Source of the DNA: an uncultured Acidobacteriota bacterium
GTDB taxonomy: Bacteria > Acidobacteriota > UBA6911
Direction of reading: 5' to 3'
Length of the DNA: 64,000 nt
Assembly (NCBI GenBank): GCA_964474425.1
Contig: CAYYTC010000001.1
Location: 26,481-90,480, forward strand
Shown: piece by piece, positions 42,884-58,352 of the stretch
Layout: the number at the start of each line of letters is the position of its first letter
Position numbering within the stretch: the stretch's first letter is position 1
Notes under the pieces: generated by a model
What the model was told of the DNA's origin: nothing
Databases searched by the model: none
The model's input: only the letters and a program-made list of their open reading frames with translations
Made by a program: the position numbers and the translations under genes

Positions 42884-44095
42884 ATGTCCGGGCCACTGAC
42901 AGGCGTTCGCGTAGTGGAAATAACCATGTTTCAGCAGGGGCCGGTCGCCGGAACAAAACTGGCGGACCTCGGCGCCGACGTCATCAAAGTCGAACCCAAG
43001 GAGGGAGATCCTGCCCGCGGCTTTATGCGCCTGATCGGAGCCACGGTGGGCCTGAGAGGCGAAAACTATTACTTTGAAAGCAACAACCGCAACAAGCGCA
43101 GCATCGCGCTGGACCTCAAGTCGCCCCAGGGGAAAGAAATCTTCCTGAAGCTGATAGACAAGGCCGATGTCTTCCTGACGAATATGAGCATCGACGCGCC
43201 GATCAAAATCGGCCTCGGTCCCGAAGACCTGATCAAGCGGAACCCGCGCCTCATCTACGGCCATTCCTCGGGATGGGGAAGGAAGGGTCCTGCGGCCGGC
43301 GATCTATCTTTTGACTACACCGGCATTGCCCGTTCCGGTCTGATGATGTGCGCCGGCGAAAAGGGGAGCCCTCCGGGGCAAATGCTGCCCGGCCTGGGCG
43401 ACCAGATCGGCGCCTTAATGCTTGCCTGGGCAATCACGGCGGCTCTGTACGCCCGCGAGAAGACCGGCAAAGGCCAGTTGATCGATACATCGCTGATGGG
43501 CAGCATTATCGCCCTGGAAGGCCTCATCCTCGATGCTCCTGCGATGCTGGGACAGGAATACCCCAGGGAATGCCGGAACGAGGCGGGCAATCCGATGTAT
43601 AACCATTATCCGTGCCGCGACGGCAAATGGATTGCGGTCGCGCACCTGCAGCCGGACCGGTATTGGCCGGCCTTCTGCAAGGCCATGGGCCTTGAGCATC
43701 TGGAACACGATCCCAGGTTCCACACCATGGAAGCGCGCGGCCAGAATTCAAAGGAGCTTATCCGCGTTCTGGACGAGAAGTTTGCCGCCAAAACGCGCGA
43801 TGAGTGGCTTGAGCAGCTGAAGAAAGGAGGCTGCATCTGCACTCCTGTCCAGTCTCTTGCGGAAGTCTGCCAGGATCCCCAGGCAATGGCCAACCAATAC
43901 ATCATAGAAGTCGATCATCCTGTCTGGGGACGGCGGGTTCGGGAAGTCGGCTTTCCGTGGGACTTCAGTGAGACCCCTGCATCCTGGAGAAAGCCGGCGC
44001 CTCAACTGGGCGAGCACACGGAAGAGATTTTGCTGGAACTGGGATACAACAGGGAAGAAATCGGCCGCCTGAAAAGCTCCGGCGCAACCGTGTAG
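42884..44095 (+). CDS. family III CoA-transferase (CaiB/BaiF/FldA/HadA type)
   Basis: The ATG at 42884 has an AAAGGAGG ribosome-binding site. MSGPLTGVRVVEITMFQQGPVAGTKLADLGADVIKVEP is the characteristic N-terminus. Active-site Asp region present. Confidence 0.85.
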   Translation: MSGPLTGVRVVEITMFQQGPVAGTKLADLGADVIKVEPKEGDPARGFMRLIGATVGLRGENYYFESNNRNKRSIALDLKSPQGKEIFLKLIDKADVFLTNMSIDAPIKIGLGPEDLIKRNPRLIYGHSSGWGRKGPAAGDLSFDYTGIARSGLMMCAGEKGSPPGQMLPGLGDQIGALMLAWAITAALYAREKTGKGQLIDTSLMGSIIALEGLILDAPAMLGQEYPRECRNEAGNPMYNHYPCRDGKWIAVAHLQPDRYWPAFCKAMGLEHLEHDPRFHTMEARGQNSKELIRVLDEKFAAKTRDEWLEQLKKGGCICTPVQSLAEVCQDPQAMANQYIIEVDHPVWGRRVREVGFPWDFSETPASWRKPAPQLGEHTEEILLELGYNREEIGRLKSSGATV

Positions 44096-44107
44096 GAGCT
44101 TATAAGC

Positions 44108-44170
44108 GAACCACGAAATACACTAAATACTCAAAATTTACATTCGTGTAATTGGTGTATTTCGTGGTTT
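44108..44170. terminator. long stem-loop (15-bp perfect inverted repeat) between convergent genes
   Basis: gAACCACGAAATACAC ... GTGTATTTCGTGGTT followed by tgttcgtcttt. Confidence 0.4.
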
Positions 44171-44190
44171 GTTCGTCTTTCCGCAATCGC

Positions 44191-45474
44191 CTATTTCACG
44201 GATGGGATGATAATGCCGCCTGAGGGGAGAATCGTTACATCGGCCCGGGGCATTTTCTTCTGAGCTTCGCGGATCGCATCGTCGAGCGAGGAGGCATATC
44301 CGAAATTCATCAGCTCCACCTGCTCCCGTGTTAATCCTTCCGTCACGTGGACCACGTCGTACTGCTCCGACATTTCCTTGAACGGAACACCGAGCATGAA
44401 GAACGAAATACCGTAAGGTTTGATGCTGTCCGGGATATCGCCGTTCAGAAGTCGGCGATGGTATTCGTTGGCGCTTTTGGCGGCCGCCATCTGCTCGATG
44501 AGGGCCATCAGCGGGCCCGCCTGCTTTTGCCCAGCCACCCAGATGATCGTGGAGTCTGTCCTGGCGGCGCTCTTGGCGTTGAGCAGCGATTTCGTCGCCT
44601 GGACGCCGACTTCAAGAGGCGATGCGGACGTGATCACGACATCCGCCGGTTTCGGCAGGGAAACCACGTAGAGGGAGGCGGCGTGATCGCAGGCTTGCCG
44701 GTGCTCCTCGACGGGGTCTCCCGCAAAGACCCTGATGACCTGGTTGGTTTCGTTCAGGAGGAAATCGATTTTGAAGGCCAGACAGCCCAGGCGGGCTATT
44801 TCCACGATTTCTTCGTAATAGGGATTCCCTTCCAGGACATTCAGTTTGCAGCTTTTGTTGCGAAGCCAGTTGTAGTGGTGATCCCCGATGGTGCGGTAAG
44901 AGGCAACTCCAGGCATGATGATCTTGCAGCCGCCCCCGAATCCGGCATTGGGATGGGGCATGCAAGCCCCGATGCCCAGAACCAGATCGGCTTCGGCCAC
45001 ATGCCTGTTGATCTCGACCACCGTTCCGCGGCGGGTTTTGCCTATCCACACGTTTTCCGGCGACTGGGATTCGTGGATGTGGATACGGCCCGCGAGCCGG
45101 CGCACGGCTTCCGTCCCGATTTTCTTTTCAACCTGCTCCGGCGTCGGCGCGGGATGAGTTCCCCGGGCGCAGATGGCCGTAATCCGTTCGTCCGGCACCC
45201 CGGCCTTGTTCAGGCGGTTCAGGACCGCCGGGAGAGCCAGATAGGCGGGAGTCGGCCTCTGCATGTCATCGAAAAGCACCACCGTTCTCATTCCCGGACG
45301 GGCGAGCTTTTCAAGGGGCGCAGTCCCGATAGGGTTGTCGAGAGCGCGCTCGACCTCTTTGACGGGGTCCTCAACCAAAGGCGCAGGCGCGCAATCCCGG
45401 GAGCTGATCACGTTCCATTCCGCCGGCAGGGAGAAATTCATTCTACCGCCGCCGTAGTTCAAATAGTAGTTCAT
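44191..45474 (-). CDS. LarA-family (lactate-racemase-like, DUF2088) Ni-pincer-nucleotide-dependent racemase/epimerase homologue
   Basis: The ATG at 45474 has an AGGAAGAGGA ribosome-binding site; the track ORF to 45903 is a read-through. MNYYLNYGGGRMNFSLPAEW...GTHPAPTPEQ...MPHPNAGFGGGCKIIMPG with His residues in LarA-like positions. Confidence 0.8.
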   Translation of the reverse strand: MNYYLNYGGGRMNFSLPAEWNVISSRDCAPAPLVEDPVKEVERALDNPIGTAPLEKLARPGMRTVVLFDDMQRPTPAYLALPAVLNRLNKAGVPDERITAICARGTHPAPTPEQVEKKIGTEAVRRLAGRIHIHESQSPENVWIGKTRRGTVVEINRHVAEADLVLGIGACMPHPNAGFGGGCKIIMPGVASYRTIGDHHYNWLRNKSCKLNVLEGNPYYEEIVEIARLGCLAFKIDFLLNETNQVIRVFAGDPVEEHRQACDHAASLYVVSLPKPADVVITSASPLEVGVQATKSLLNAKSAARTDSTIIWVAGQKQAGPLMALIEQMAAAKSANEYHRRLLNGDIPDSIKPYGISFFMLGVPFKEMSEQYDVVHVTEGLTREQVELMNFGYASSLDDAIREAQKKMPRADVTILPSGGIIIPSVK

Positions 45475-45571
45475 GGTTCCTCTTCCTGAAATTGATATCG
45501 TCTTACAACTATGCCACGAATCCGCGCAAATTTCACGGGAATCCGGCCGGAAATCCCGGTTGGCGGGACGT

Positions 45572-46333
45572 CTATCCCAGGATTGCCGCTCCGACTGCGG
45601 CAGAAACCTGAGGCTCCTCGGGAACCAGTATTTTTGCGCCCAGCTCTGTTTCCAGCGTCCGCACGAGGCCGATGTCTTTGGCGCCCCCGCCGGTGACGGC
45701 GCAGTCGGGAGCCAGACCGAGGCGGACGATGAGGTTGACGATTTTTGCCGCCATCGCTTTGTGCACTCCCGCCAGGATATCCGCCGGGCCGGCGCCTTCG
45801 GCAATCCGCGAAACCGCTTCAGACTCGGCAAAGACCGCACATCCTGTGGTGAATTCGACCGGATTTGCAGACTCCAGGGACAGGGCGCCGATATCCGCGA
45901 CATTCATATGGAGAATCCGCGCGATGACCTGGAGAAACTTGCCGCTTCCGCCCGCGCACTTCTCGTTCTGAACAAAATTCATCACCTTGCCGTCGTTCCC
46001 CAGCTTAATCGCCCGGCTGAACTGGCTGCCGATGTCCACCACGGTCCGGGCCGAAGGGAAGAAATGAAAAATCCCGGCAGCGTGACAGGAGATGTCGGCA
46101 ACGGTCCGGTCGGCAAAATCAACCGCCCCGGCTCCCCAGCCTGTCGCCACCGTCGTTGAAATTTCCGCGCGGGAGAGGTTTGCCTTTTCGAGTGCGGCAT
46201 CCGAGACTTTCCGGGCCGATTCCGCGTAGTTACCGCCCGAAGGCACTGTGGCATGCGACATTAGGCCGGCATCTCCCACGACGGCCGCCTTCGCGAAACT
46301 GGAGCCTACATCGATGCCCAGGTTGTATTTCAT
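45572..46333 (-). CDS. BadF/BadG/BcrA/BcrD-type ATPase (HgdC/BcrD-like activator/electron-transfer subunit)
   Basis: 253 aa. Actin-fold ATPase GIDVGSSFAKA; cluster-binding motif NEKCAGGSGKF. Confidence 0.85.
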   Translation of the reverse strand: MKYNLGIDVGSSFAKAAVVGDAGLMSHATVPSGGNYAESARKVSDAALEKANLSRAEISTTVATGWGAGAVDFADRTVADISCHAAGIFHFFPSARTVVDIGSQFSRAIKLGNDGKVMNFVQNEKCAGGSGKFLQVIARILHMNVADIGALSLESANPVEFTTGCAVFAESEAVSRIAEGAGPADILAGVHKAMAAKIVNLIVRLGLAPDCAVTGGGAKDIGLVRTLETELGAKILVPEEPQVSAAVGAAILG

Positions 46334-46451
46334 GCCGCGGTTCCTATCCCCTATCTATATCTATACCGGCGAAAAACATCAAACGCAAGCATATGGGACC
46401 GGGATTGGCGGCCATGATCCTGCGGGAGGTCGATCCCGAATGGGTCCCGGA

Positions 46452-47306
46452 TCATTGGAAAAAGCTTGCTTCGCCCAGCTGCCGGGGCTTTGTGGCGAGT
46501 TTGCCGCCGGTCTTTACGGCCTTTTCGTACATCTCCTGCCCTATGAGTGCCGCTCCGAGAGCGCCCGTGATGAGCGGCTCGCGGGGAACCTTAACAGGGC
46601 AGCCGAATTTTGCCTCCAGCGCTTTCACCAGCCCGATATTTTTCGCTCCGCCGCCCGTTATGGCTACATCGGGCCTGATTTTGAGCTTGCTGACGAGAGC
46701 GAATATGCGCGTCGCGATAGCCTGGTGAATGCCCGCCACAAGGTTGGGGATGGACTCGCCGTCCGCCAGCTGCGAGATAACCTCCTGTTCGGCGAAAACA
46801 GTGCACGTGTTGCCGATAACGGCCGGTTTCTCGGCGGCCAGGGACAGTTCCCCGAGTTTTTCCAGGGGAATGCCGAGAGCTTCCGCAATGATTTCCAAAA
46901 AGCGACCCGTGCCGGCGGCGCATTTGTCATTCATGACGAAATCGACAACCTTGCCGTTTTCCAGGCGAATCCCTTTGCTGTCCTGGCCCCCGATGTCCAC
47001 TACGGTGTGCGCCGAGGGGAGGAGGCTCGACAGGCCCTTTGCGTGACAGGTGATCTCCGTAACCTGCCGGTCGGCAAACGGCACATTTATTCTTCCGTAA
47101 CCGGTTGAAACAACATAGGTTACATCGTCGAAAGATATCCCCGCCCGGAGCAGGGCTTCCTCCATCACCCGGTTGGCCAGTTTCCTGTGCTCGGGCCCCG
47201 TAGGTCCAATGATTGAGGACTCCTCGCCGCCGCCCAGGATGACGACCTTGGTCATCGTCGATCCGATATCCACGCCGGCGAAGTAACTGTTGGCAACCTG
47301 CATCAT
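46452..47306 (-). CDS. BadF/BadG/BcrA/BcrD-type ATPase, second paralogue
   Basis: 284 aa. GVDIGSTMTKV; NDKCAAGTGRF. Clearly a different paralogue from 45572..46333. Confidence 0.85.
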   Translation of the reverse strand: MMQVANSYFAGVDIGSTMTKVVILGGGEESSIIGPTGPEHRKLANRVMEEALLRAGISFDDVTYVVSTGYGRINVPFADRQVTEITCHAKGLSSLLPSAHTVVDIGGQDSKGIRLENGKVVDFVMNDKCAAGTGRFLEIIAEALGIPLEKLGELSLAAEKPAVIGNTCTVFAEQEVISQLADGESIPNLVAGIHQAIATRIFALVSKLKIRPDVAITGGGAKNIGLVKALEAKFGCPVKVPREPLITGALGAALIGQEMYEKAVKTGGKLATKPRQLGEASFFQ

Positions 47307-47327
47307 AAATACATTGGTAAATCCCCG

Positions 47328-47550: not shown

Positions 47551-48876
47551 TTACTTCCCTTTCCTGGCCGCCAGGGTCTCGATGAACGCGTCGATCCTGT
47601 TATGCGTATCGGCCTCATTGTAGGAGCTGATGTCGACGATGTCCCCCTCCATGATAAGAGTGGGAACGTCGCCGTAGACCTTGTTCAGCACCTGGGCCTG
47701 CTGGACGATGCCCGCGTGCCAGCTGCGGCAGGAATATGCGGAGTGGAATACCACTCCGTCGCACCGGTAGTCTTCCATATATTCGATGATGCGCTCGACC
47801 TTCGGCAGCGAACCCGGCCGCTTGCGCGCCTTGTCGAACCAGCGGGTCCAGAGACGCACCCATCTCCATGCGAGGTGTTCGAGGGGATCGCTGGTTTTGG
47901 GCAGGTCGAGGCGTTCAATCTTCTCGGCGTTGCGATAGGTGACTTCAACCGGGAAAACGGCTCCCTTATCGTTGAAGTACTGGAAATCGCCCAGAGCAAA
48001 CCAGGAAGGCAGGCCGGCGCCCCAGACGAGCCGGTATTTCTCGTCCTCGGCCACGCCTTTTTTCTGAGCAATCTTTTCCTGGAGCTCGCTATAGAGTTCT
48101 TTATAAAAATCGAGGGCTTCCTGGGTGCCCAGATTGAAAGTCAGCGGCACCATCGTGTTCATGGCGTCGCCCGTATCCATAGGGGTCGGAATGGCTTTCC
48201 GCAGCTCATAGCTGTCGATAAACATGTCCCAGGTCCGGTCGGTCAAATCGACCAGCGCGGCGAGCCGGTCCCAGTCCATTTTTTTCCCCGTGTGCTTTTC
48301 ACAGAATCGCACCAGGCTCCGGAGTTCTTCGGTGGCGTACTTTACGTAAAGCTTCTCCTGCTCCTTGTGATCGATGGCCGGATCCCAGGGAGGATAGTAC
48401 ATGGTCCCCATCCAGACAGGGACGTCCTGGAGATAGTGCTGGGTTGCCTGGGGCCACTTTATCCTCGGGTCGCACAACTGCTGGGCGCTGCCGATAATCA
48501 TATCGGGCCTTCCCATCCCCCCCCACGGAGTATTCGGGGGAATCTCCCCTCCCAGTTCCTCGCGCCACATGTCGAAGCCGATGGTGCATGTCGCATAGGT
48601 GCACAGCGAGCGGGAGAAATTTTCAGCCTCCGCCTTCTGGAGAAATTTCTCCGCGTCTCTCTTGGCGGAACAAACGCCGGCGAAATTCTCGCCCCAGGCC
48701 GGGACGATATCCATGGCGCGGACGATTTCGTCCTGAGCGTTGTTGATATAGGTGTAGGCTACCTTCTTGCCTTCTTCCCTGGCTTTCAAAGTTGCGGCCA
48801 TGTTGGTCCTGCCGAATTTCCCTGCTTTCCCCGCCGCCTGTGTCGCCAGTGGTCTTGGTTTTCTGATTTCAGCCAT
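47551..48876 (-). CDS. BcrB/BzdO/HgdB-like subunit of a benzoyl-CoA reductase / 2-hydroxyacyl-CoA dehydratase family enzyme
   Basis: 441 aa. Conserved Cys/His pattern; C-terminus NRIDAFIETLAARKGK shared with the 50301 paralogue. Confidence 0.8.
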   Translation of the reverse strand: MAEIRKPRPLATQAAGKAGKFGRTNMAATLKAREEGKKVAYTYINNAQDEIVRAMDIVPAWGENFAGVCSAKRDAEKFLQKAEAENFSRSLCTYATCTIGFDMWREELGGEIPPNTPWGGMGRPDMIIGSAQQLCDPRIKWPQATQHYLQDVPVWMGTMYYPPWDPAIDHKEQEKLYVKYATEELRSLVRFCEKHTGKKMDWDRLAALVDLTDRTWDMFIDSYELRKAIPTPMDTGDAMNTMVPLTFNLGTQEALDFYKELYSELQEKIAQKKGVAEDEKYRLVWGAGLPSWFALGDFQYFNDKGAVFPVEVTYRNAEKIERLDLPKTSDPLEHLAWRWVRLWTRWFDKARKRPGSLPKVERIIEYMEDYRCDGVVFHSAYSCRSWHAGIVQQAQVLNKVYGDVPTLIMEGDIVDISSYNEADTHNRIDAFIETLAARKGK

Positions 48877-48888
48877 GTATCTCTCCCG

Positions 48889-50046
48889 TTACGCAATCAT
48901 TTCCAGGAATGCTTCTATCCGGGTTTTCACCCGGCCGAGGCTGGACGTGTTGTATTCATCCTCAATATAGAGGACCGGCGTCCCGGCGGTTTCAATGAAG
49001 CTTTTTATCGCGGGGACTTCAAAGCCGTATGGATCGCAATATTTGTAGATGAAAAGGATCGCCCCGTTCACCCGGAAGTCTTTGATGTACTGCCTCATGT
49101 GGCCGAAGCGCGCTTCGAGATTTTCCGAATAGGTGTTTCCCCCGGAGACGAACGTCGTGGGGAATTTCAATTTTTTGAGGTACCTCTCGGTGATGCCCCG
49201 GACCGGATCGTCTGTCGGATCCACGTCGCCCCAGTACATTTTGCTGCCTGTCGAAAGGTCGTCCATGACCATGCACGCACCGGCATCTTCTATGGCCCTG
49301 ACGATCGCCACGTCGTCGATCTGGTCCCCCACGAGCATGATCCGCGCCGTTGGACTGCCGTTTGCGCGAACCCGATTTTTTGCTTCTTGGGTAACGCTTT
49401 TTATCAGGGCGGTGGACTCGTCGACGGGGAGGCTCATGGAGGCTATGAGGACCTTCATCATTTCGGCGCCGGAGATGCGGGGCGCATCTTCTTTCCGAAG
49501 CTCGTAAAGCTCTCTCATGGCCCGCCGGTTTTCGTTATGAGCGCGGACGGCTTCCGTGAGTGCCTGATCGGTGATGCTTTTCCCCGTGAACTTTTCCAGA
49601 GTCCTCAGGAAAATTCTCAGGATCTCGTCCGTAAACTCGATCGATGGATCGTCCGTGACATGAGGGTAGTTGATAAAATGCCAGTACGGGAGTTCCAGTT
49701 TTTCACTCCACACATCAAAGGTTCTTTCGACGCTGTCGCATTGATGCGGCAATACCATGCCGTCCAGGTAAGCGTATCTCCCCTTGAGAGCCGCATCGAA
49801 GGCATTCCGGACAAAGGGGCATATCATCGTCTCCATATAGGCATCGGCCTTCGTCACCGGTTCCGATACGTAGCCCTTCAGCCGGACCGGCACGACGCCC
49901 GCCGCCGTGAGGATCTCCACGGGGCAGAGAGCGGACATATACCCGATGACTTTTCTGCCCGAGCTCCTCAGTTCCCGGGCTCTCGACCCATAGTCGGAAT
50001 AGTATTTTTCAACCGTTGCCAATCCGCCCGATTGCGCTTCTCCCAT
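48889..50046 (-). CDS. BcrC/BzdN/HgdA-like subunit of the same enzyme family
   Basis: The ATG at 50046 has a GGAGGTG ribosome-binding site; the track ORF to 50274 is a read-through. 385 aa, MGEAQSGGLATVEKYYSDYGSRAREL... Confidence 0.8.
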   Translation of the reverse strand: MGEAQSGGLATVEKYYSDYGSRARELRSSGRKVIGYMSALCPVEILTAAGVVPVRLKGYVSEPVTKADAYMETMICPFVRNAFDAALKGRYAYLDGMVLPHQCDSVERTFDVWSEKLELPYWHFINYPHVTDDPSIEFTDEILRIFLRTLEKFTGKSITDQALTEAVRAHNENRRAMRELYELRKEDAPRISGAEMMKVLIASMSLPVDESTALIKSVTQEAKNRVRANGSPTARIMLVGDQIDDVAIVRAIEDAGACMVMDDLSTGSKMYWGDVDPTDDPVRGITERYLKKLKFPTTFVSGGNTYSENLEARFGHMRQYIKDFRVNGAILFIYKYCDPYGFEVPAIKSFIETAGTPVLYIEDEYNTSSLGRVKTRIEAFLEMIA

Positions 50047-50300
50047 CTTTTCACCTCCCCGGCTGGCCGCCGATATGAAACTGCGCATGCCGAAAAAGAC
50101 TAAGTGTAACATTGGAAGCAGCAAGCCAAAAGCCAGAAGACAGCATGAAGAAATTTGACATTCGGGCTCGAGGCAAGCCATATTTGGGATTGAGGACAGG
50201 TGTGTCCGATGAACAGCAACCCCATAGATACAGGAGCGAGGGAGTGAAAACGGAACAAAGCAAGCCGCAGGCATTCAAGAAAATCCAAGCAACCAACAAG

Positions 50301-51503
50301 ATGAAAGAAATCATGGAGCAGCATTTCCGCGAGCTGGATGAAGCCGCCAGGACCCAAAGCAGCAAGATCGCCTGGTGCACCAGCGTCGGGCCCGCCGAAC
50401 TGTTGCGCGCAGCGGGATTCCTGGTTTTCTTTCCGGAAAATCACGGCGCCATGCTCGGATCGACCCGCATGGCTACGGATCTTATTCCTTTAGCCAATGC
50501 CCTGGGCTACTCTCCCGACATCTGTTCGTATCTGACCAGCGATATCGGGTCCTACATCAAGGGCGAAAGCCCCATAAGCAAGGCGTACCCCGGCATCAGC
50601 GGCCCGCCCCGGCCCGACGTGCTGGTTTACAACACCAACCAGTGCCGCGATGTGCAGGACTGGTACAACTTCTATGCGCGGGAATTCAAGGTGCCCGTTA
50701 TCGGCGTTGAGACGCACCGCGGCGTCGGCGACATTACCAAGGCGCATGTGGATTCCATCTCAGCGCAGATCCAGGGGCTTGTGCCGAAGCTGGAGGAGAT
50801 CTCCGGCCGGAAACTCGATTACGAGGAATTCAGGCGCGTGGTCGGCCTTTCCCGTCAATGCACGGACCTGTGGAAACAGGTGCTGCAGATCGCCTCGAAC
50901 GTTCCGTCGCCCTTGACATTCTTTGACGGCACGATCCAGATGGGACCCGCGGTGGTTCTCCGCGGCGAGCAGAGGGCGGTCGATTATTACAAACTCCTTC
51001 TTGCGGAACTGCAGCAGCGGGTCAAGGACGGGGTTGCCGCCATCGACAATGAGAGGTTCCGCCTATACTGGGAAGGCATGCCGATCTGGGGCAAGCTGCG
51101 GGAACTGTCCACTCAGTTTGCGAGCCTGGATACCTGCGTTCTGGCTTCGACCTACTGCAGCAGCTGGGTTTTCCCCGCTCTGGACCCGGACGATCCCTTC
51201 GACAGCATGGCGCGCGCTTACATCGAGCTGTTCATCGTTCGCAATGAAGCGTACAAGGAGAACTATTTCGAGAGAGAGATCGATCTGTACAAGATCGACG
51301 GCATGATTTTTCACGATGCAAAAACCTGCCCCAACAATTCCAACAACCGTTACGGCCTGCCGGAACGTCTCTCCCAAAACTACAGCATGCCGATGCTCGT
51401 GCTGCACGGGGACCTGAACGACCTGCGCTGCTACTCGGAAGAACAGGCCCGCACCAACATCGAGGCGTTCATCGAGCAGCTGGCGGAGAGGAAGGGCCGT
51501 TGA
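50301..51503 (+). CDS. second BcrB/HgdB-like subunit paralogue
   Basis: The ATG at 50301 gives MKEIMEQHFRELDEAARTQSSKIAWCTS... C-terminus NIEAFIEQLAERKGR. 401 aa. Confidence 0.8.
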   Translation: MKEIMEQHFRELDEAARTQSSKIAWCTSVGPAELLRAAGFLVFFPENHGAMLGSTRMATDLIPLANALGYSPDICSYLTSDIGSYIKGESPISKAYPGISGPPRPDVLVYNTNQCRDVQDWYNFYAREFKVPVIGVETHRGVGDITKAHVDSISAQIQGLVPKLEEISGRKLDYEEFRRVVGLSRQCTDLWKQVLQIASNVPSPLTFFDGTIQMGPAVVLRGEQRAVDYYKLLLAELQQRVKDGVAAIDNERFRLYWEGMPIWGKLRELSTQFASLDTCVLASTYCSSWVFPALDPDDPFDSMARAYIELFIVRNEAYKENYFEREIDLYKIDGMIFHDAKTCPNNSNNRYGLPERLSQNYSMPMLVLHGDLNDLRCYSEEQARTNIEAFIEQLAERKGR

Positions 51504-52291
51504 TTTCCGACGCGATTTACGGCGGTGTGGATGTCGGGGCTTCGGCGACCAAGGTCGCCATCATCGACTCCCGGAAAGAGCTCCTGGCTTCCGACGTGAG
51601 GAAGACCGGGGTCAATTTTGAAACCTGCGCGCAGGAGGCCATGGATGCGGCTTTGGCCTCCTGCGGCAAAAGCCTGTCCGATCTCGCGCGCATCCTCTCG
51701 ACCGGCTACGGCCGCCACAACGTCGCTTTCGCGCAGGCAACCCGGACCGAGATCGCCTGCCACTCCCGCGCCGCACACCACTTCTTCCCGCGCAAAATTG
51801 CGGTCGTTGATGTCGGAGGCCAGGATAATAAGGTCATTCATGTGGACGCCGAAGGCAGGCGCATCAATTTCAAGATGAACCGCAAATGCGCTGCGGGAAC
51901 GGGCGCCTTCCTCGAAGAGGTTGCCCAGCGCATGGACGTGCCGATGGACCAGATTGAACCCCTGGCGCGCCAGGCCCAACACATCGTCCACATGGGAAGC
52001 TTTTGCACCGTATTTACCAAAACGGAAATTTTGGCCCATTTGCGCGCGGGCGAGAAGGTGCCTGAGATCGTGGCCGGGCTCATCGAATCGGTCGTGAAGC
52101 GGATTATAGAAATGGATCCGCTCTCGGGCGATGTCGTCATCAGCGGCGGGGTGGTGGCCCACAATCCGGTGCTCGCGGAAATGCTGTCCCAGCGTTTGGG
52201 CCGCCCGGTAAACATTTTGCCTCACGCGCAGCTGGCAGGCGCTTTTGGAGCCGCCCTGCTTGCCGCCGATGATCGGGAGAATGAACCGTAG
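51500..52291 (+). CDS. BadF/BcrA/HgdC-type ATPase (third activator paralogue)
   Basis: The TTG start overlaps the upstream stop (GTTGA) behind a GGAGAGGA ribosome-binding site. GVDVGASATKV; NRKCAAGTGAF. 263 aa. Confidence 0.8.
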   Translation: MISDAIYGGVDVGASATKVAIIDSRKELLASDVRKTGVNFETCAQEAMDAALASCGKSLSDLARILSTGYGRHNVAFAQATRTEIACHSRAAHHFFPRKIAVVDVGGQDNKVIHVDAEGRRINFKMNRKCAAGTGAFLEEVAQRMDVPMDQIEPLARQAQHIVHMGSFCTVFTKTEILAHLRAGEKVPEIVAGLIESVVKRIIEMDPLSGDVVISGGVVAHNPVLAEMLSQRLGRPVNILPHAQLAGAFGAALLAADDRENEP

Positions 52292-52300: not shown

Positions 52301-53578
52301 TTATGCAGTAAGTTTGGGAAGCGCGCTCGAACCTTGAGGCATGAGGTAGATTTTCTTCCCTCCCCTGGCGAGGGCCATCTCCAGAGCTTCCTCCACGGTC
52401 CTGGCGGTCTTCAGCGCAGTCCGCTTCAGCAGCGAAGGATCCCCGCCGCCCACAATGATGATGTTCCACTTTTCTGCGGCGGTGCACATGTAATAGCTCA
52501 CGTATTTGGCCACCGTGAAGAGACTGCGGACCTCTTTTTCCCTCTCCGCGTTCGTGCCGCATCCCAGGAATATCGTGTTTGCGTCCGGCGGCCCGATGCC
52601 TTCCGAGCAGTCGCTCAGGATGATCATGGTGCCGCCCGGCTTCGTCGCTTCCTGCGTATGGTAGATGCCCTTGCCGGTCTGGCAGACGTCGATATCCTTC
52701 GGGTACCCGCCCTGCGACGAGATCGTGATGTCGGCAAGCTCTTGGATCGGCACGGCATAGAGATCGTCCACGATTTTTCGTCCCACGGCGTGCGCCTGCT
52801 CATAGTGCCCGCAAACGGCCTGCGCGATTTTTCCGTCGTGTCCCATGATCACGTTGAACATGAACGAAGGATTCACAATCGAGGCGACTTCGAGCATGTC
52901 CAGGTGCATCGGGTTATCCTGGATATTCCCGCTCCTGACTTCAGGACGTTGTTGTCCCCTTTCATCCATCACCATCAGGTGATTGTGCTGGATGGATTCG
53001 ATGGAGGAAATCCCGGGCAGAATCGACTTCTTCCCTCCTCCCCAGCCGACCCACGGGTGATAGGTGCAGCAGCCGGTCAGGATCAGGTGGTCGGCCTCCG
53101 CCGCAATTCTGTTGATGGTCACGGGTGTTCCGCGGCTGGTTTTGCCCAGAGGGACCAGGTTGGCCTTATCCATGCAGTCATGGTCAATGATTCCAAAACG
53201 CTCCAATAGCGCCTTACCCAGCTGCTTTTCGTGCTCCTCCGGAGTCTGACCGCGGTGGTAGCCGAGAGCGCACAGGAAGCGTATATCCTTGTCCCTGACA
53301 CCCGCTTCATTCAGTTCGTTCACGATATGCGGCAGATAGACGTGCATTCTCTGCCAGGCGCGGGTCACGTCGGATACGACAACGCAGACGGTCTGACCGG
53401 GCTTGACGATCTCCTTCAGCCTTGGAGCGCCGATCGGTCTGGCGAGCGCGGCCAGGATCGCTTCATCTTCGGTCATTGTGGAGGGGGGCACCTCCTTGAG
53501 GATCACGCCCAGCAGGTTTTCCTCCGGGACGGATACATCTACGTAGCCATGGCCGAGCTTCATTTTTATGGTCTTCAT
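52301..53578 (-). CDS. LarA-family racemase/epimerase homologue, second copy
   Basis: The ATG at 53578 has an AAGGAG ribosome-binding site. MKTIKMKLGHGYVDVSVPEEN...CALGYHRGQTPEEH...HPWVGWGGGKKSILPG. Confidence 0.8.
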   Translation of the reverse strand: MKTIKMKLGHGYVDVSVPEENLLGVILKEVPPSTMTEDEAILAALARPIGAPRLKEIVKPGQTVCVVVSDVTRAWQRMHVYLPHIVNELNEAGVRDKDIRFLCALGYHRGQTPEEHEKQLGKALLERFGIIDHDCMDKANLVPLGKTSRGTPVTINRIAAEADHLILTGCCTYHPWVGWGGGKKSILPGISSIESIQHNHLMVMDERGQQRPEVRSGNIQDNPMHLDMLEVASIVNPSFMFNVIMGHDGKIAQAVCGHYEQAHAVGRKIVDDLYAVPIQELADITISSQGGYPKDIDVCQTGKGIYHTQEATKPGGTMIILSDCSEGIGPPDANTIFLGCGTNAEREKEVRSLFTVAKYVSYYMCTAAEKWNIIIVGGGDPSLLKRTALKTARTVEEALEMALARGGKKIYLMPQGSSALPKLTA

Positions 53579-53816: not shown

Positions 53817-54806
53817 TCACCGAAGCACGATGCTGCCGGACCCGGTGCGCACCTCCACCAGGTTGCCGCCGCCGCGAAACTTGCCGCTGGCCACCTTCGA
53901 GCTCAGCGCGCCGTTAAAATCCGATGCTCTTTCGAAATTTATCCGGCCCGAGGCTGTGCGGGCATTGAGATCAAAAGCCGCGTCCGGCGGCACATCGAGC
54001 GCGACGCTTCCGGATGAGGCATGGATGCTCCAATTGCCCGCGGGATTTCCGCCGGCCTTGATGCTTCCGCTTCCCGTGCTTGCGCGAAGGGATCCTGAGA
54101 TTCCGGAAATTTCGATGCTGCCCGAACCGGTGCGGGCAGCCACGTCCATGGCCGAACCCTGTTCAGCGGCCGTCAGGTCCAGCGTTATGGCGCCGCTACC
54201 GGTGCTTGCGCTGACGGATCCGGCAATCCCCATAGCCTTGATGGAACCGCTGCCGGTTCTCACCTCGAGCCTTCCGGTCAAACTGCGGGCTTCGATGCCG
54301 CCCGAGCCGGCCTGTGCGTTCACATCACCCCGGATATTGTCTATGTTGATGGATCCGGAGCCGGTAGCAAGTTCCACGCGTCCCTGCAATCCATAAATCC
54401 GCTGGCTTCCGGACCCGGCACGGCTGCTCAAGCTCGTTTCGGGAGGCGTTTCGATCTCGTATCTGATTGAGACATTGTTCCTGTAGTCGTCCTCCTCGAT
54501 CCGGCCGACGCGGATCACATTGCCGTTCTGTTCGATCGGCGGCTGCGATTCCAGGTACTTGATCTTCTCTTCCGCGGTCGCGTGCCGGTCATCCCGGGCT
54601 TTGATTATGCCCCGAATCCTGAGGAAGCCGAAATTTCCGGCCTTTACATCAACACTCCCGGATCCGGTTATGACATCCAGGGTGACCGGGCCGGCCACAG
54701 TCAGAGTGCGCTCAAATGTTCCTTCCACGGCCGGGAATGCCGCCAGGCATCCCGTAAGGCTGGTCAAAGCTATAATTGTTGAGATGCGCAACAGGTAGTG
54801 TCTCAT
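53817..54806 (-). CDS. lipoprotein with a DUF4097 beta-repeat domain
   Basis: Lipobox LTSLTGC. Repeated TGSGSI(D/E)(V/I) strands. 329 aa. Confidence 0.65.
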   Translation of the reverse strand: MRHYLLRISTIIALTSLTGCLAAFPAVEGTFERTLTVAGPVTLDVITGSGSVDVKAGNFGFLRIRGIIKARDDRHATAEEKIKYLESQPPIEQNGNVIRVGRIEEDDYRNNVSIRYEIETPPETSLSSRAGSGSQRIYGLQGRVELATGSGSINIDNIRGDVNAQAGSGGIEARSLTGRLEVRTGSGSIKAMGIAGSVSASTGSGAITLDLTAAEQGSAMDVAARTGSGSIEISGISGSLRASTGSGSIKAGGNPAGNWSIHASSGSVALDVPPDAAFDLNARTASGRINFERASDFNGALSSKVASGKFRGGGNLVEVRTGSGSIVLR

Positions 54807-55022
54807 GGCGAATAGCCTCCCTGCCCGTTAAAACGAAATAGCCGGCCCGGATGTTCCATCCCGTTTTGCAATTGTTTCAGGATCGGCCCGGCCGGCCACC
54901 GTTAGCGTGGCGGTCCGGCGGATCCCTGTGATATATTGGCCATCGGGTTGCCGGGGGCCAGGTTCCATACAGGCATCCCCAGTTGAAAGATTTTTGGAAA
55001 TTAATTCATCGGGAGGAATGCA

Positions 55023-56234
55023 ATGTCAGAAGGACCGCTCTCAGGGATCAGGGTCATAGAGATTTCCACATTTCAGCAGGGACCGGTGGCCGGCATGAGG
55101 CTGGGGGACCTGGGGGCCGACGTGATCAAGATCGAAACGAAGGACGGGGATCCCGCAAGGCGCCACTTCCGGACGATCGAGGCCGAATTCAACGTCAAGG
55201 GTTATAACTATTACTTCGAACATGCCAACCGCAACAAGCGGGGCATCGTCCTGGACATGAAAAAGAAGGAGGGCATGGATGTCTTCCTCAAGCTCATCGA
55301 TACGGCGGACGTTTTCCTGAACAACATGAGCATTGCGGCCCCAATCCGTCTCGGGATCGGTCCTGAGGCGCTTCTTGCACGCAATCCGCGGCTCATCTAC
55401 GCGCAGGCATCCGGCTGGGGACGCAAAGGTCCGTCCGCCAACAGCCTTTCCTTCGACTACACCGGCATCGCGCGGTCCGGCCTGATGATGGCGGCCGGAG
55501 AAGACCAGACGCCGCCCTGCATGATGCTTCCCGGCCTCGGCGACGAGATGGGCGGGCTCGTAAGCGCCTGGGGCGTAAGCCTGGCGCTCTTCGCGCGCGA
55601 GCGGACGGGCAAAGGCCAGGTGGTCGACACCTCGCTGATGGGCAGCGTCGTCGCCCTGATCGGGCACCTCATGTCCGGCACGGCAATGCTGAAGCAGGAA
55701 TTTCACAGATTTGTGAGAACAAAAATGGGAAATCCCATGTACAACCACTATCGCTGCAAAGACGACAAGTGGATTGCCATCGCCCACCTGGACCCCGACC
55801 GGTGGTGGGCAAAGGTTTGCGGCGCCCTGGGAGTCGAGAATTTGATTAATGACCCGAGATTCAGCACTTTTGCCGCCCGTTCCGCCAACCGCGAAGAACT
55901 GATTGCCATTTTTGACGGGCTTTTTGCCAGCAAGACCCGGGACGAATGGATGAAGATCCTGGAAGAACACGGCTGCATCTATACTCCGGTTCAAAACATC
56001 CCCGACGTTGTGGAGGACCCGCAGGTGCTGGCGAACAATTACATGATCAACATCGATCACCCTGTTCACGGGCCCACAAAAACCATGGGTTTCCCCTGGG
56101 ACCTCAGCGAAACGCCGGCGTCCTGGAGAAGGAAAGCGCCGAATCTGGGCGAGCACACGGAAGAGGTGCTGCTCGAAATCGGCTACAGCAGGGAGGGAAT
56201 CGCAAAGCTCAGAGAAGCCGGGGCAATCCAGTAG
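55023..56234 (+). CDS. family III CoA-transferase, second copy
   Basis: MSEGPLSGIRVIEISTFQQGPVAGMRLGDLGADVIKIETKDGDP is paralogous to 42884..44095. Confidence 0.85.
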   Translation: MSEGPLSGIRVIEISTFQQGPVAGMRLGDLGADVIKIETKDGDPARRHFRTIEAEFNVKGYNYYFEHANRNKRGIVLDMKKKEGMDVFLKLIDTADVFLNNMSIAAPIRLGIGPEALLARNPRLIYAQASGWGRKGPSANSLSFDYTGIARSGLMMAAGEDQTPPCMMLPGLGDEMGGLVSAWGVSLALFARERTGKGQVVDTSLMGSVVALIGHLMSGTAMLKQEFHRFVRTKMGNPMYNHYRCKDDKWIAIAHLDPDRWWAKVCGALGVENLINDPRFSTFAARSANREELIAIFDGLFASKTRDEWMKILEEHGCIYTPVQNIPDVVEDPQVLANNYMINIDHPVHGPTKTMGFPWDLSETPASWRRKAPNLGEHTEEVLLEIGYSREGIAKLREAGAIQ

Positions 56235-56300
56235 ATCGGGCTGCCCGTTCGCGAGCCGCTATTTCCACAGAACACCCACTTTTCCTTTTAAGGAGCTATT

Positions 56301-58352
56301 ATGCTTGATTCACTGTTCCGGCCCCGCGGCGTCGCCGTCATAGGGGCTTCCAACAATACTTTTTCGATCGGAAACCGCGTCGTTAAGAACCTGCTGGACC
56401 ACGGCTTCAAGGGCCCGATTTTTCCGGTTCATCCGAAGGAGCCCGAAATCCTTGGCCTGAAGGCATACCCGAGCATCCTGGATGTGCCCGGACCGGTGGA
56501 TATCGCGAGCATAGTGGTCAAGAACACCATGGTTCCTCAGGTGGTCGAGGATTGCGGCAAAATGGGCGTCAAGTTCGTCATCATCCACACTGCCGGGTTC
56601 CGCGAGATGGGAGAGGAAGGCGCAAAACTCGAAGATGCCCTGCTCGACGCGGCCCGCCGATACGGCGTGCGTGTTTATGGCCCGAATTCCCAGGGAGTCA
56701 TGAATTCGGATCCGGAAATTTCCGTCTACGCCAACTTCACCTTTACGCCGATGCGTCCCGGCAAGGCCTCGATCCTGGCCCAGAGCGGCGGCGTGGCGGA
56801 GATGCTCAACCTGAACCTGCGCAGGATGGGCTCGGGTTTCCGCATCTATGCATCGCACGGCAATGCCACCGATGTGAATACCAACGAACTGCTGGACTAT
56901 CTCGGCAATGATCCGGAGACGCGGACCATCATCATGCATATCGAGAGCATGAAAGATACCCCGGGATTCATCGAGCGCTGCAGGCGCATTGCCCGCGAGA
57001 AATCCATACTGGCGATCCGGACCGGGCGCACCGCCGCCGCCGCCAAAGCGGTCAGCTCCCATACGGGATCGCTCATGCAGAAGGATTCCCTCACGGACAC
57101 GATATTCGAGCACGCCGGCGTGATGCGGTTCAACACGACGGAAGAGATGATTTCCGCGGCATACGCGTTCGCCACCCAGCCGGTGCCCGCCGGTCCGAAC
57201 GTTGGCATCATCGCGAACGCCGGCGGTCCCGGCATCATGGCCGTGGATGAGTGCGTAGGCCGCGGGCTCTCGCTGGCCAGGTTTACCGAGGAAACGAAGA
57301 GCAGGCTGCGCGCCGGGCTGATTGCGGAATCCTACGTGGAAAACCCCGTCGATGTGGCTGCAACGGCCAACGCCGACCATTTCGCCTTGGCTCTGTCCTG
57401 CCTGAACGATGACCCGGGCGTCGACTCCATACTCATTCCTATGGTTACTCCGTTTTTCGTGGATTGCGAAGCCATTGCCCGCAGCATCGCCGAGACGGCG
57501 CGCAAAGCGACCAAGCCCATCATCGCCGTCGTCATGACCAACGAGAATTGGGCAAAAACAGTCGAGACCATCAAGAGCGCGGGAATCCCGGTCTTCGACT
57601 TCCCGGAGACAGGCGCGCGCGTCCTGGCTGCCATGGTGCGTTACGGTGAGATCCGGAAACGCCTTGCCGAACAGCCTGCTATAGTTTCGGGAAACAAGAC
57701 CGAGGCGCAGGAGATACTGGCCGGACAGCCTTCCGGATTCGTTTCGCAAACTGCTGCCTTCAAAGTGCTGGATGCCTATAAGATTCCCAGCGCCCGCACG
57801 GTTCCGCTGACCGGGACGCAGCTGCCCCCCGGGTTAAAATTCCCCGTGGCTGTGAAAGTCGACAGCGCCGAGGTCGTTCACAAGAGCGATGCGGGGGGAG
57901 TTGCTCTGAACATCGCCCGCAAGGCAACGCTTCAGAAGGCAGTCGAAGAAATGTCCGGCCGGTTTCCGGGCGCGAATCTGGTCGTGCAGGAGCAATGTCC
58001 GCAGGGAATGGAATTCATCATAGGCCTCAGACGCGAACCGGGCGTCGGCCCGGTTGTCATGTTCGGAATGGGCGGCGTTCATGTGGAATCGCTCAAGGAT
58101 GTCTCGTTCCGGATGGCGCCGCTCTCCGAGGCAGGCGCCGCGCGCATGGTCCGGGAAATCCGGTCGCTCCCGCTGCTCAAGGGCGGGCGGGGACTCCCTG
58201 CCGCCGATCTGGCTGCTGTGGAGCGCCTGTTGATCACTGTATCTCAGATAGCCGTCGATCTGCCCGAAATCACGGAAATGGACCTGAATCCCGTTATCGT
58301 TTATCCGGAGGGACAGGGAGCCAAAGTAGCAGACGTCCGCATCAAAAAGTAA
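56301..58352 (+). CDS. ADP-forming acyl-CoA synthetase (NDP-forming acetate/acyl--CoA ligase, fused alpha-beta)
   Basis: 683 aa. N-terminal CoA-binding domain (VAVIGASNN...), succinyl-CoA-synthetase-like His region, C-terminal ATP-grasp. Confidence 0.85.
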   Translation: MLDSLFRPRGVAVIGASNNTFSIGNRVVKNLLDHGFKGPIFPVHPKEPEILGLKAYPSILDVPGPVDIASIVVKNTMVPQVVEDCGKMGVKFVIIHTAGFREMGEEGAKLEDALLDAARRYGVRVYGPNSQGVMNSDPEISVYANFTFTPMRPGKASILAQSGGVAEMLNLNLRRMGSGFRIYASHGNATDVNTNELLDYLGNDPETRTIIMHIESMKDTPGFIERCRRIAREKSILAIRTGRTAAAAKAVSSHTGSLMQKDSLTDTIFEHAGVMRFNTTEEMISAAYAFATQPVPAGPNVGIIANAGGPGIMAVDECVGRGLSLARFTEETKSRLRAGLIAESYVENPVDVAATANADHFALALSCLNDDPGVDSILIPMVTPFFVDCEAIARSIAETARKATKPIIAVVMTNENWAKTVETIKSAGIPVFDFPETGARVLAAMVRYGEIRKRLAEQPAIVSGNKTEAQEILAGQPSGFVSQTAAFKVLDAYKIPSARTVPLTGTQLPPGLKFPVAVKVDSAEVVHKSDAGGVALNIARKATLQKAVEEMSGRFPGANLVVQEQCPQGMEFIIGLRREPGVGPVVMFGMGGVHVESLKDVSFRMAPLSEAGAARMVREIRSLPLLKGGRGLPAADLAAVERLLITVSQIAVDLPEITEMDLNPVIVYPEGQGAKVADVRIKK

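Follow-up and report, generated by a model that had tools for sequence, protein, structure and literature searches.

We analyzed a 64,000-nucleotide stretch of DNA from an uncultured Acidobacteriota bacterium (the window; contig CAYYTC010000001.1), and in particular its positions 42884-58352 (the span). The span encodes two family-III CoA-transferases, two homologs of LarA, three HGD-D proteins of the benzoyl-CoA reductase (BCR)/Hgd family (one of the N/C type and two of the B/O type), three BcrAD-type ATPases, one ADP-forming acyl-CoA synthetase (ACD), and one DUF4097 protein. We think it probable, if far from certain, that the span combines two separate radical-enzyme systems, both of the BCR/HAD family, that have been joined in one acidobacterial lineage: a four-subunit reductase (module 1) and a 2-hydroxy-acid module (module 2). 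The genes are as follows, with starts refined from ribosome-binding sites and the lengths of homologs, as several of the mechanical open reading frame (ORF) starts were too early.

42884-44095 (+): CoAT1, family-III CoA-transferase, assigned to module 2; 403 aa from the ATG at 42884
44109-44169 (no strand): inverted repeat between the convergent CoAT1 and LarA1, from a repeat search; 27-nt arms with 85% complementarity, 7-nt loop
44191-45474 (-): LarA1, LarA homolog (nickel-pincer nucleotide (NPN) 2-hydroxy-acid racemase family); 427 aa, Lar_N and LarA_C
45572-46333 (-): ATPaseD, second BcrAD-type ATPase subunit of module 1; 253 aa, BcrAD_BadFG
46452-47306 (-): ATPaseA, first BcrAD-type ATPase subunit of module 1; 284 aa, BcrAD_BadFG
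47551-48876 (-): B1, catalytic-type (BzdO/BcrB/HadB-like) HGD-D protein of module 1; 441 aa
48889-50046 (-): C, accessory BzdN/HadC-type HGD-D protein of module 1; 385 aa from the ATG at 50046
50047-50243 (no strand): divergent intergenic region between C and B2, 197 bp, bounded by the gene starts
50244-51503 (+): B2, "solo" HadB-like HGD-D protein, core of module 2; 419 aa from the GTG at 50244
51500-52291 (+): ATPase3, single HgdC/HadI-type activator ATPase, assigned to module 2; 263 aa, BcrAD_BadFG
52301-53578 (-): LarA2, second LarA homolog; 425 aa, Lar_N/LarA_C
53817-54806 (-): DUF4097/LiaG-like "toastrack" protein, by Pfam and NCBIfam
55023-56234 (+): CoAT2, family-III CoA-transferase, paralog of CoAT1; 403 aa
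56301-58352 (+): ACD, fused alpha-beta ADP-forming (NDP-forming) acyl-CoA synthetase, assigned to module 2; 683 aa
41895-42794 (+), flanking the span: ThyA-like protein (TIGR03283), co-oriented with CoAT1, whose start lies 90 bp downstream

A preliminary description of this DNA had read these genes as one island with the logic of the Had and Fld systems of Clostridium. Pfam and NCBIfam scans confirmed each of the gene families that it listed, and their locations, with matches far above chance, but its tally needed correction to three HGD-D proteins and three ATPases, plus the DUF4097/LiaG-like gene inside the span. By composition there is no island: the base composition and GC content of the span are the same as in the rest of the window. 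The Had/Fld-like logic is partly supported. It fits B2, ATPase3, LarA, CoA-transferase, and ACD, a set that recurs elsewhere, with B2 resembling HadB in sequence, fold, and pocket. It does not fit C, B1, ATPaseA, and ATPaseD, which have the architecture of a BCR and occur elsewhere without LarA, CoA-transferase, or ACD. The logic thus appears to hold for module 2 only, and we regard the locus as two uncharacterized variants of known radical-enzyme systems. Of the two, the operon with a HadB-like protein and no beta subunit is the more interesting.

Going further, we tentatively offer a broader idea that we would sooner bet against than for. B2 and ATPase3 might represent a widespread class of beta-less (homodimeric) 2-hydroxyacyl-CoA dehydratases, in which one HadB-like protein would both take the ATP-energized electron and carry out catalysis. 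This class, which is tied or fused to ApbA (the ketopantoate-reductase family) and tied to ACD, might be the core of an ATP-yielding pathway by which Acidobacteriota and Desulfobacterota convert 2-oxo or 2-hydroxy acids to enoyl-CoA. Module 1, for its part, might represent ATP-dependent BCR-type reductases with a new class of substrate, found in strict anaerobes and, among these, in syntrophs that already have the ATP-independent enzyme for benzoyl-CoA.

Gene order across related loci

Our comparison set contained about 170 related loci: 80 genome loci retrieved via B1, 80 metagenome loci retrieved via an alignment of B2 homologs, and several contigs found by exact protein lookup. We searched all of these with every protein of the region by tblastn, and our counts are over 83 loci fetched with B1 and 86 fetched with B2. 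Clustering of neighbors by the longest ORF misses genes in high-GC loci (for example, C in L090 is masked by an antisense ORF), and the counts were redone with tblastn on the DNA.

The two modules are usually found apart. Among the loci fetched with B1, the block C-B1-ATPaseA-ATPaseD is together in about 60, from Acidobacteriota and Syntrophorhabdaceae and including Syntrophorhabdus aromaticivorans UI. B2, ATPase3, LarA2, CoAT2, and ACD lie beside it only in L004, which is 99% identical and from the same species, and LarA1 and CoAT1 lie beside it only in L004 and L009. Conversely, B2 and its ATPase were found in all 86 of the B2-fetched loci, of which L090 alone has module 1, and L090 matches the window; about 80 loci have module 2 without module 1. 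The comparison across these loci thus yields two conserved modules, which are found together essentially nowhere but in this species. A lesson for annotation is that two systems passed for one pathway because they adjoin in a single genome.

In L084 and L085, the gene order is molybdopterin oxidoreductase, corrinoid protein, ThyA-like protein, CoA-transferase, and LarA, and then B2, ATPase, and ACD, which is the order in the window minus module 1 and minus the LarA2-DUF4097-CoAT2 segment. The set of CoA-transferase, LarA, B2, ATPase, and ACD is found in L084, L097, and L099, and L086 carries CoA-transferase, ApbA, B2, ATPase, and ACD. CoAT1 is syntenic with LarA1 and B2 in four loci (L084, L096, L097, and L099), the LarA1 ortholog divergently adjoins B2 in L084 and L085, and LarA2 is also beside B2 and its ATPase in L090 and L091. 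By ancestry, then, LarA1 is a module 2 gene, even though it is downstream of module 1 here.

The preliminary description had taken the repeated genes as duplications that serve two substrates or two stereochemistries. CoAT1 and CoAT2 are indeed 62% identical. Identity is just 25% between B1 and B2, 30% between LarA1 and LarA2, and 30-43% among the three ATPases, with ATPaseA and ATPaseD as the 43% pair. At these identities, the B subunits and the ATPases are not duplicates but parts of different systems. So most of the apparent duplications do not look like duplications at the sequence level, and only the CoA-transferases look like paralogs.

Module 1 lies between LarA1 and B2 only in this lineage, which is probably due to an insertion after horizontal transfer and not to membership in the same pathway. 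B1 is 75-86% identical between bins labeled Acidobacteriota and bins labeled Syntrophorhabdaceae (Desulfobacterota) across loci L004-L083. Several genomes have two copies of B1 (OY762209.1 and CAWIGL010000002.1). Together, the high identity across phyla and the double copies suggest horizontal transfer and expansion into paralogs. Also, in another acidobacterial genome (L009, 754-2627), the stretch directly upstream of module 1 holds genes for an AbiEii toxin (type IV toxin-antitoxin system) and for an acetoacetate-decarboxylase-like protein. The cross-phylum identity of B1 and the AbiEii flank are both consistent with horizontal mobility of module 1. We found no direct or inverted repeats that mark the insertion of module 1: a repeat search gave only the similarity of the paralogous ATPases and one intergenic hairpin. 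Aligning the DNA upstream of B2 with related loci gave no information about a breakpoint either; relative to L084, L097, and L099, the sole conservation there is the GGAG ribosome-binding site and the GTG start. B1 is 99% identical to the B1 of L004, which is from an uncultured Acidobacteriota genome bin, and an exact-sequence lookup of B1 in the contig collection gave no match.

Proteins of the two modules

B2 is most similar to HadB. In sequence searches against solved structures, it matched HadB with 170 bits, MbdO with 114 bits, and BzdO with 93 bits. A fold search with its AlphaFold model (predicted local distance difference test (pLDDT) of 78, predicted template-modeling score (pTM) of 0.82) also put HadB first, with a TM-score of 0.84/0.87, followed by reductase alpha subunits, the double-cubane cluster protein DCCP (0.72), and beta subunits. 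The cluster cysteines of B2 (C94, C134, and C362) align to those of HadB and BzdO, and at the equivalents of six BzdO positions B2 has the residues of HadB (W46, E65, Y97, V131, Y298, and W302, in BzdO numbering). For these comparisons we used a MAFFT alignment with PDB sequences that were reconstructed from HMMER output. Its BzdO numbering reproduces the residues named in PMC11971306, where the BzdO site comprises Cys95, Cys128, Cys380, Glu65, and His131, along with an aryl pocket (Trp46, Leu302, and Leu383) and residues around the thioester (Gln274, Tyr97, and Tyr298). The ligand positions of BzdN and DCCP come from alignments rather than coordinates, and the pocket comparisons, made at 20-30% identity, are approximate.

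What sets B2 apart is that it has no obvious partner. Another HGD-D-like sequence lies within 10 kb of B2 in only 3 of the 86 loci (tblastn, E up to 1e-4), so the B2 family lacks an adjacent beta subunit, and the C gene that adjoins B2 in the window belongs to module 1. In characterized 2-hydroxyacyl-CoA dehydratases, the cluster of the beta subunit relays the activating electron. B2 itself probably works as a homodimer that is served by ATPase3, by analogy to DCCP, which is a homodimeric solo HGD-D protein with its own homodimeric ATPase, DCCP-R (PDB 6eno/7yyl; PMC7317905). ATPase3 matches TIGR00241 with 217 bits and has the Cys pair C130/C169; its best matches among solved structures are MbdQ (169 bits) and HadI (162 bits). 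These searches do not separate reductase-type from activator-type ATPases, as MbdQ, HadI, and HgdC score alike.

We considered whether B2 binds a double cubane and rejected this candidate. Counting two further invariant cysteines, C45 and C305, whose equivalents hold the second cubane in BzdN and DCCP, B2 has cysteines at 5 of the 6 ligand positions. In a search of 1.8 billion cluster representatives, these two cysteines vary in relatives below about 40% identity (to V/I/L/S/T and to T/P/A, respectively), as pocket residues do, and the fold and sequence of B2 are of the alpha type. C45 and C305 are more plausibly pocket residues than cluster ligands.

The B2 alignment has at least 564 metagenome matches that were confirmed by tblastn, and in our literature searches we came across no account of a cluster of the solo HadB-like/ApbA/ACD kind. 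If it is real, a conserved and abundant beta-less relative would change the picture of 2-hydroxyacyl-CoA dehydratases as alpha-beta heterodimers, and it would offer a simpler system for studies of ketyl-radical catalysis. Also, the link of B2 to ACD and to ApbA, GlcD, or LarA points to an unrecognized route for 2-oxo and 2-hydroxy acids in anaerobic bacteria of soil and sediment.

The evidence for this link comes from the 30 loci in which B2 is flanked on each side by 4 kb or more; the neighbor families were checked with Pfam. An activator-type ATPase is nearby in all 30. Any CoA-activating gene is present in 25 of 30, as ACD (18/30), an AMP-forming ligase (13/30), or a family-III CoA-transferase (5/30). 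Any 2-hydroxy-acid enzyme is present in 19 of 30, whether an ApbA/PanE-type reductase (11/30), a GlcD-FeS fusion (6/30), or LarA (3/30), and a thiolase or enoyl-CoA hydratase is found in 13/30. Furthermore, three cluster representatives (P0242, P0250, and P0263) are ApbA-HGD-D fusion proteins, which directly link 2-hydroxy-acid synthesis to the B2 family. In two of these, P0250 and P0263, all three cluster cysteines are missing, and their HGD-D domain is probably non-catalytic. Separately, four loci of the Desulfobacterota type (L106, L116, L129, and L157) carry an operon with malonyl-CoA decarboxylase, a GlcD-FeS dehydrogenase, B2, ATPase, an AMP ligase, and a thiolase, which hints at a route of the lactate/acrylyl-CoA/3-hydroxypropionyl-CoA/malonyl-CoA type.

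Turning to the partners in the window, CoAT1 and CoAT2 both match the full CoA_transf_3 profile (1-366/366, E ~1e-115), and both fall below every equivalog cut-off in NCBIfam. The preliminary description had considered kinship with formyl-CoA/oxalate enzymes as an objection to its reading, and we see no such kinship at the equivalog level: CoAT1 has 219 and 215 bits against the Frc/YfdW models, with cut-offs of 442 and 504, and CoAT2 is similar. Among solved structures, the closest relative of CoAT1 is SUGCT (9br6, 185 bits), and YfdW and Frc are at about 150 bits. For ACD, five Pfam domains are in order over residues 9-682, including CoA_binding_2, Succ_CoA_lig, Ligase_CoA_2, and ATP-grasp_5. 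It reaches no substrate-specific equivalog (483 bits vs 1300 for 4-hydroxybutyrate-CoA ligase and 465 vs 1200 for acetate-CoA ligase).

The best solved relative of LarA1 is the malate racemase Mar2 (6d6z, 179 bits). LarA1 keeps residues D72, R75, H108, H174, K184, H200, Q295, and K298 of Lactiplantibacillus plantarum LarA (D72, R75, H109, H176, K186, H201, Q294, and K297 in its own numbering), and LarA2 keeps all of the catalytic and NPN-binding residues as well (D86, R89, H124, H190, K200, H216, Q316, and K319 in its own numbering). We take the roles of these residues in L. plantarum LarA to be two catalytic histidines, a lysine that tethers the cofactor, a nickel-binding histidine, and a carboxylate-binding arginine, glutamine, and lysine. 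LarA2 has 450 bits against the LarAH10 model (NF052525; cut-off 540), and LarA1 has 274 bits, with a cut-off of 500. Judging from these scores, LarA2 is nearest to the LarAH10 group and LarA1 is a distant relative of malate racemase. The LarAH10 group consists of racemases of hydrophobic 2-hydroxy acids (PMC11770544). Compared to the LarA superfamily as described (PMC7583248, PMC11770544), both proteins are alike in keeping the catalytic His, the cofactor-tethering Lys, and the nickel-binding His, and they differ in that they are below the equivalog cut-offs and in that Pfam and NCBIfam scans found no larB, larC, or larE among the window ORFs scanned.

Given these proteins, we propose that CoAT1, LarA1, B2, ATPase3, LarA2, CoAT2, and ACD form a 2-hydroxy-acid module. 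The NPN-dependent LarA racemases would supply the D-(R)-2-hydroxy acid, a role that an ApbA-type 2-oxo-acid reductase or a GlcD-FeS dehydrogenase would fill in other genomes, and a family-III CoA-transferase would form the (R)-2-hydroxyacyl-CoA. ATPase3, presumably a homodimer with a bridging [4Fe-4S] cluster, would inject one low-potential electron at the cost of ATP. B2, with its three-cysteine [4Fe-4S] cluster and no beta partner, would then dehydrate the substrate to 2-enoyl-CoA, so we propose that B2 and ATPase3 have 2-hydroxyacyl-CoA dehydratase activity with catalytic use of ATP. ACD would link the acyl-CoA pool to ATP, either by conserving ATP from the product thioester or by priming the CoA pool. 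A 2-hydroxy acid that is small or hydrophobic is the probable substrate, and the window does not encode what becomes of the enoyl-CoA.

How does this compare to known systems? HadA/HadI/HadBC, the (R)-2-hydroxyisocaproyl-CoA dehydratase system of Clostridioides difficile, and FldABC/FldI share with module 2 the family-III CoA-transferase, the single-gene ATP-dependent activator with a Cys pair (ATPase3 here), and the three-cysteine [4Fe-4S] pattern of the catalytic subunit, with HadB as the best match to B2 in both sequence and fold. In contrast to those systems, B2 is not accompanied by a HadC-like beta subunit, the D-2-hydroxy acid would come from LarA racemases instead of the dehydrogenases LdhA or FldH, an ADP-forming acyl-CoA synthetase is part of the conserved module 2 cluster, we found no acyl-CoA dehydrogenase or electron-transferring flavoprotein (ETF) locally, and B2 falls short of the cut-off of the HadB equivalog model (214 bits vs 750).

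The lap cluster of the acrylate pathway encodes a propionyl-CoA transferase, a lactoyl-CoA epimerase, and a three-component lactoyl-CoA dehydratase (PMC8914356). Like module 2, it handles the stereochemistry of a 2-hydroxy acid and combines this with CoA transfer and then radical dehydration, but its dehydratase has activator, alpha, and beta components, the cluster has no ACD, and its putative epimerase works on the CoA ester and not on the free acid (PMC8914356). DCCP with DCCP-R offers the sole precedent in the family for a member without a beta subunit, as we infer for B2 and ATPase3. However, B2 does not have the 7-Cys motif of DCCP, six of whose cysteines bind the cluster (PMC7317905), and B2 resembles catalytic alpha subunits and lies in a gene context of CoA esters and 2-hydroxy acids. 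On the double-cubane model NF040772 (cut-off 350), B2 has 52 bits and C has 203 bits.

Module 1 appears, from its sequences, to be a self-contained four-subunit enzyme with the architecture of a class-I BCR, that is, two different HGD-D proteins and two different ATPases. Its gene order (N-like, O-like, ATPase, ATPase) is the bzdNOPQ-type order, and about 50-60 loci keep all four genes as a block. In 67 loci C is found with B1, and in about 50 ATPaseD directly follows ATPaseA. As in BzdNOPQ (PDB 8s02; PMC11971306) and MbdONPQ (PDB 9g87/9gai), two HGD-D proteins and two small ATPases are in one operon. Among solved structures, C is best matched by BzdN (198 bits, vs 124 for HadC and 93 for DCCP), ATPaseA by MbdQ (249 bits, vs 225 for HadI and 209 for HgdC), and B1 by BzdO (81 bits, vs 67 for MbdO and 61 for HadB). 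The ATPases have cluster Cys pairs (C129/C168 in ATPaseA and C126/C165 in ATPaseD), and ATPaseD matches TIGR00241 with 221 bits.

On the other hand, module 1 differs from these reductases in that all four subunits are far below the NCBIfam equivalog cut-offs: C has 203 bits vs 454 for BzdN, B1 has 96 vs 449 for BzdO and 100 vs 487 for BcrB, and the ATPases have 145-175 vs 380 for BzdQ. We also saw no genes of the dienoyl-CoA pathway near module 1. The N subunit of Bzd-type enzymes has a six-cysteine [8Fe-9S] double-cubane site (PMC11971306). C keeps four of those six positions (C41, C76, C103, and C337), which is a HadC-like pattern, and has Ser265 and Phe295 at the positions of C263 and C293 of BzdN. 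B1 has its cluster cysteines (C92, C135, and C383) and keeps the equivalents of Cys95, Cys128, Cys380, Glu65, Tyr97, and Tyr298 of BzdO, while His131 is replaced by Arg, Gln274 by Leu, Leu302 by Glu, Leu383 by Trp, and Trp46 by Tyr. These replacements are invariant in the B1 family, whose members in Acidobacteriota and Syntrophorhabdaceae are 75-99% identical; the invariant pocket residues, in BzdO numbering, are R131, L274, E302, R381, and W383. MbdO has Phe at the position of His131, so this histidine does not define the whole class. As C lacks two of the six double-cubane cysteines and B1 has Arg in place of His131, module 1 is not a canonical benzoyl-CoA reductase.

The commonest neighbors of module 1 elsewhere are PAS-LuxR regulators (28 loci), AMP-binding ligases (23), sigma-54 regulators (22), and DctP (12), which is the binding protein of a tripartite ATP-independent periplasmic (TRAP) transporter. 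This is a pattern of ligase plus reductase and not of 2-hydroxy-acid metabolism. Most likely, module 1 carries out the ATP-dependent reduction of a CoA thioester, which is presumably made by the AMP-forming ligases that adjoin it in other genomes. In Syntrophorhabdaceae, an example of such ligases beside the module is at 5484-8738 of L001. Our literature searches found no description of the four-gene module of Syntrophorhabdus and Acidobacteriota. In published genome-resolved work, benzoyl-CoA reduction in Syntrophorhabdus has been assigned to an ATP-independent enzyme (PMC5946492). Annotations routinely label module 1 "benzoyl-CoA reductase," and it serves as a marker for anaerobic degradation of aromatics. 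Because it is below the equivalog cut-offs, departs from the BzdO active site at several positions, and occurs in organisms that reduce benzoyl-CoA by other means, this marker may mislead metagenomic surveys. We also noticed that in S. aromaticivorans UI, the C homolog appears to be split into two overlapping ORFs (8642-9196 and 9081-9674, within 8642-9674 of L024), so that in this type strain there is a frameshift, a pseudogene, or a mistake in the draft assembly.

Alternative readings of the locus

Several observations weigh against the composite that we favor or against the roles that we propose for its parts. Only 97 bp separate ATPaseD from LarA1, which follows it on the same strand and may by now share a transcript with module 1. 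In a second species (L009), too, module 1 is paired with LarA1 and CoAT1. There may be co-regulation of the two modules in this organism and a secondary functional link between them in these Acidobacteriota. Module 1 could be a dehydratase with a heterodimeric activator. A beta subunit for B2 could be encoded elsewhere in the genome: to our knowledge, all characterized 2-hydroxyacyl-CoA dehydratases are alpha-beta heterodimers, and a beta-less dehydratase would be without precedent. And the window has no homolog of a 2-hydroxy-acid dehydrogenase (ApbA or GlcD), an enoyl-CoA hydratase, or a thiolase, nor did Pfam and NCBIfam scans find an acyl-CoA dehydrogenase, enoyl-CoA reductase, or ETF among the ORFs scanned. 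The pathway is therefore incomplete locally, and the complete route that the preliminary description envisioned is not encoded here.

Another view, that of the preliminary description, is that the span encodes one integrated and complete reductive route of the Had/Fld type, in which the duplicates serve two substrates or stereochemistries and ACD recovers ATP. All of the genes are adjacent and tightly packed, including the close spacing of LarA1 to module 1, the arrangement is kept in L004 and L090 and partly in L009, and CoAT1 and CoAT2 are true paralogs. But module 1 occurs in about 60 loci without the genes of module 2, and module 2 occurs in about 80 without module 1; the B1/B2 and LarA1/LarA2 pairs are divergent (25% and 30% identical); and two distinct ATPase genes are a hallmark of benzoyl-CoA reductases, not of dehydratases. 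Neither an enoyl-CoA reductase/ETF nor a 2-hydroxy-acid dehydrogenase was found in the window. We consider an integrated route quite unlikely. We give even less credence to the idea that C, and perhaps the ATPases, work with either B1 or B2 as the catalytic subunit, so that one electron-delivery module serves two active sites. It is true that C and B2 diverge from a common 197 bp intergenic region, that B2 has no beta subunit of its own, and that C has a HadC-like complement of four cysteines. Yet there is no C-like gene within 10 kb of B2 in 83 of 86 loci, which implies that the B2 family works without C; C goes with B1 in the 67 loci already mentioned; and B2 has a dedicated ATPase, whose start overlaps the B2 stop.

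If B2 and ATPase3 do work on their own, they might be an ATP-dependent reductase of two components like DCCP/DCCP-R, acting on the CoA ester of a 2-oxo or enoyl acid or on a small molecule, instead of a dehydratase. DCCP has this architecture, in which a solo HGD-D protein is served by one ATPase of its own (PMC7317905), and C45 and C305 of B2 are at two further double-cubane positions. However, sequence searches of solved structures with B2 gave no match to DCCP up to E = 0.01, the double-cubane model in NCBIfam is far from its cut-off (52 bits vs 350), C45 and C305 are variable in distant relatives, and HadB is the best match in fold and pocket residues. Dehydration fits the association with enzymes of 2-hydroxy-acid formation, ApbA fusions among them. 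So a reductase seems improbable to us, and we keep to a dehydratase for module 2. We are less sure about ACD, which could run in the ATP-consuming direction as an acid-CoA ligase that feeds B2, with no substrate-level phosphorylation. An AMP-forming ligase is the only nearby CoA-activating gene, without ACD or CoA-transferase, in 7 of the 30 well-flanked B2 loci, and among the best NCBIfam matches of ACD are two ADP-forming enzymes that bear the name of ligases, for 4-hydroxybutyrate-CoA and 3-hydroxypropionate-CoA. Against this, ACD and an AMP ligase are together in several operons (for example, in L088, L104, L122, and L139), which suggests that they have separate roles, and the two CoA-transferases of the window could activate the acid instead of ACD. 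We think that the ATP-consuming direction is somewhat unlikely, though it deserves more weight than the other alternatives.

Transcription signals and the surrounding window

Scans for promoters and terminators found sites no more often than in shuffled sequence, so the operon structure is read from spacing and strand alone. There is one promoter-like match in the C/B2 intergenic region, at 50155-50184 (+), with TTGACA, an 18-nt spacer, and CATATT. The inverted repeat at 44109-44169 is possibly a bidirectional terminator, to judge by its sequence. A ribosome-binding site, AAAGGAGG, precedes the start of CoAT1. Long spurious antisense ORFs occur in the high-GC sequence here. For example, an ORF of 833 aa at 47602-50103 (+) is antisense to B1 and C, has no match to a Pfam family, and was treated as spurious.

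To the left of the span are the ThyA-like gene, a corrinoid protein, and a molybdopterin oxidoreductase, and to the right is an efflux system. The ThyA-like protein has 88 bits against TIGR03283 (methanogen-type thymidylate synthase), whose cut-off is 175. Its gene again adjoins CoAT1 in L084, L096, L099, and L009, and it may be a member of module 2, with a functional link, or may just reflect inherited gene order. At 38465-41761 (-), the corrinoid protein, which is of the methyltransferase type (MtgC/MtbC-like, 203 bits), lies beside the 820-aa molybdopterin oxidoreductase; the latter has no equivalog match. This pair is kept beside the ThyA-like gene and CoAT1 in the same four loci.

The DUF4097 protein (62 bits to DUF4097; 73 bits to LiaG, with a cut-off of 285) was detected among related loci only in L004 and L090 and is probably outside both pathways. 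Embedded between LarA2 and CoAT2, it is the second such gene: near the start of the window (1725-6635), an extracytoplasmic function (ECF) sigma factor, an anti-sigma factor, and LiaF/LiaG-like "toastrack" (DUF4097) proteins form a cluster.

The genes dnaA (29833-31215), dnaN, recF, gyrB, and gyrA are grouped at 22002-31215 (-), so the window is chromosomal and covers the replication-origin region, about 12 kb from the span. Finally, an aromatic amino-acid ammonia-lyase (HAL/PAL family, 655 bits) is encoded at 8639-10183 (+), about 33 kb from the span, and by its family it could be a supplier of an aryl-acrylate.

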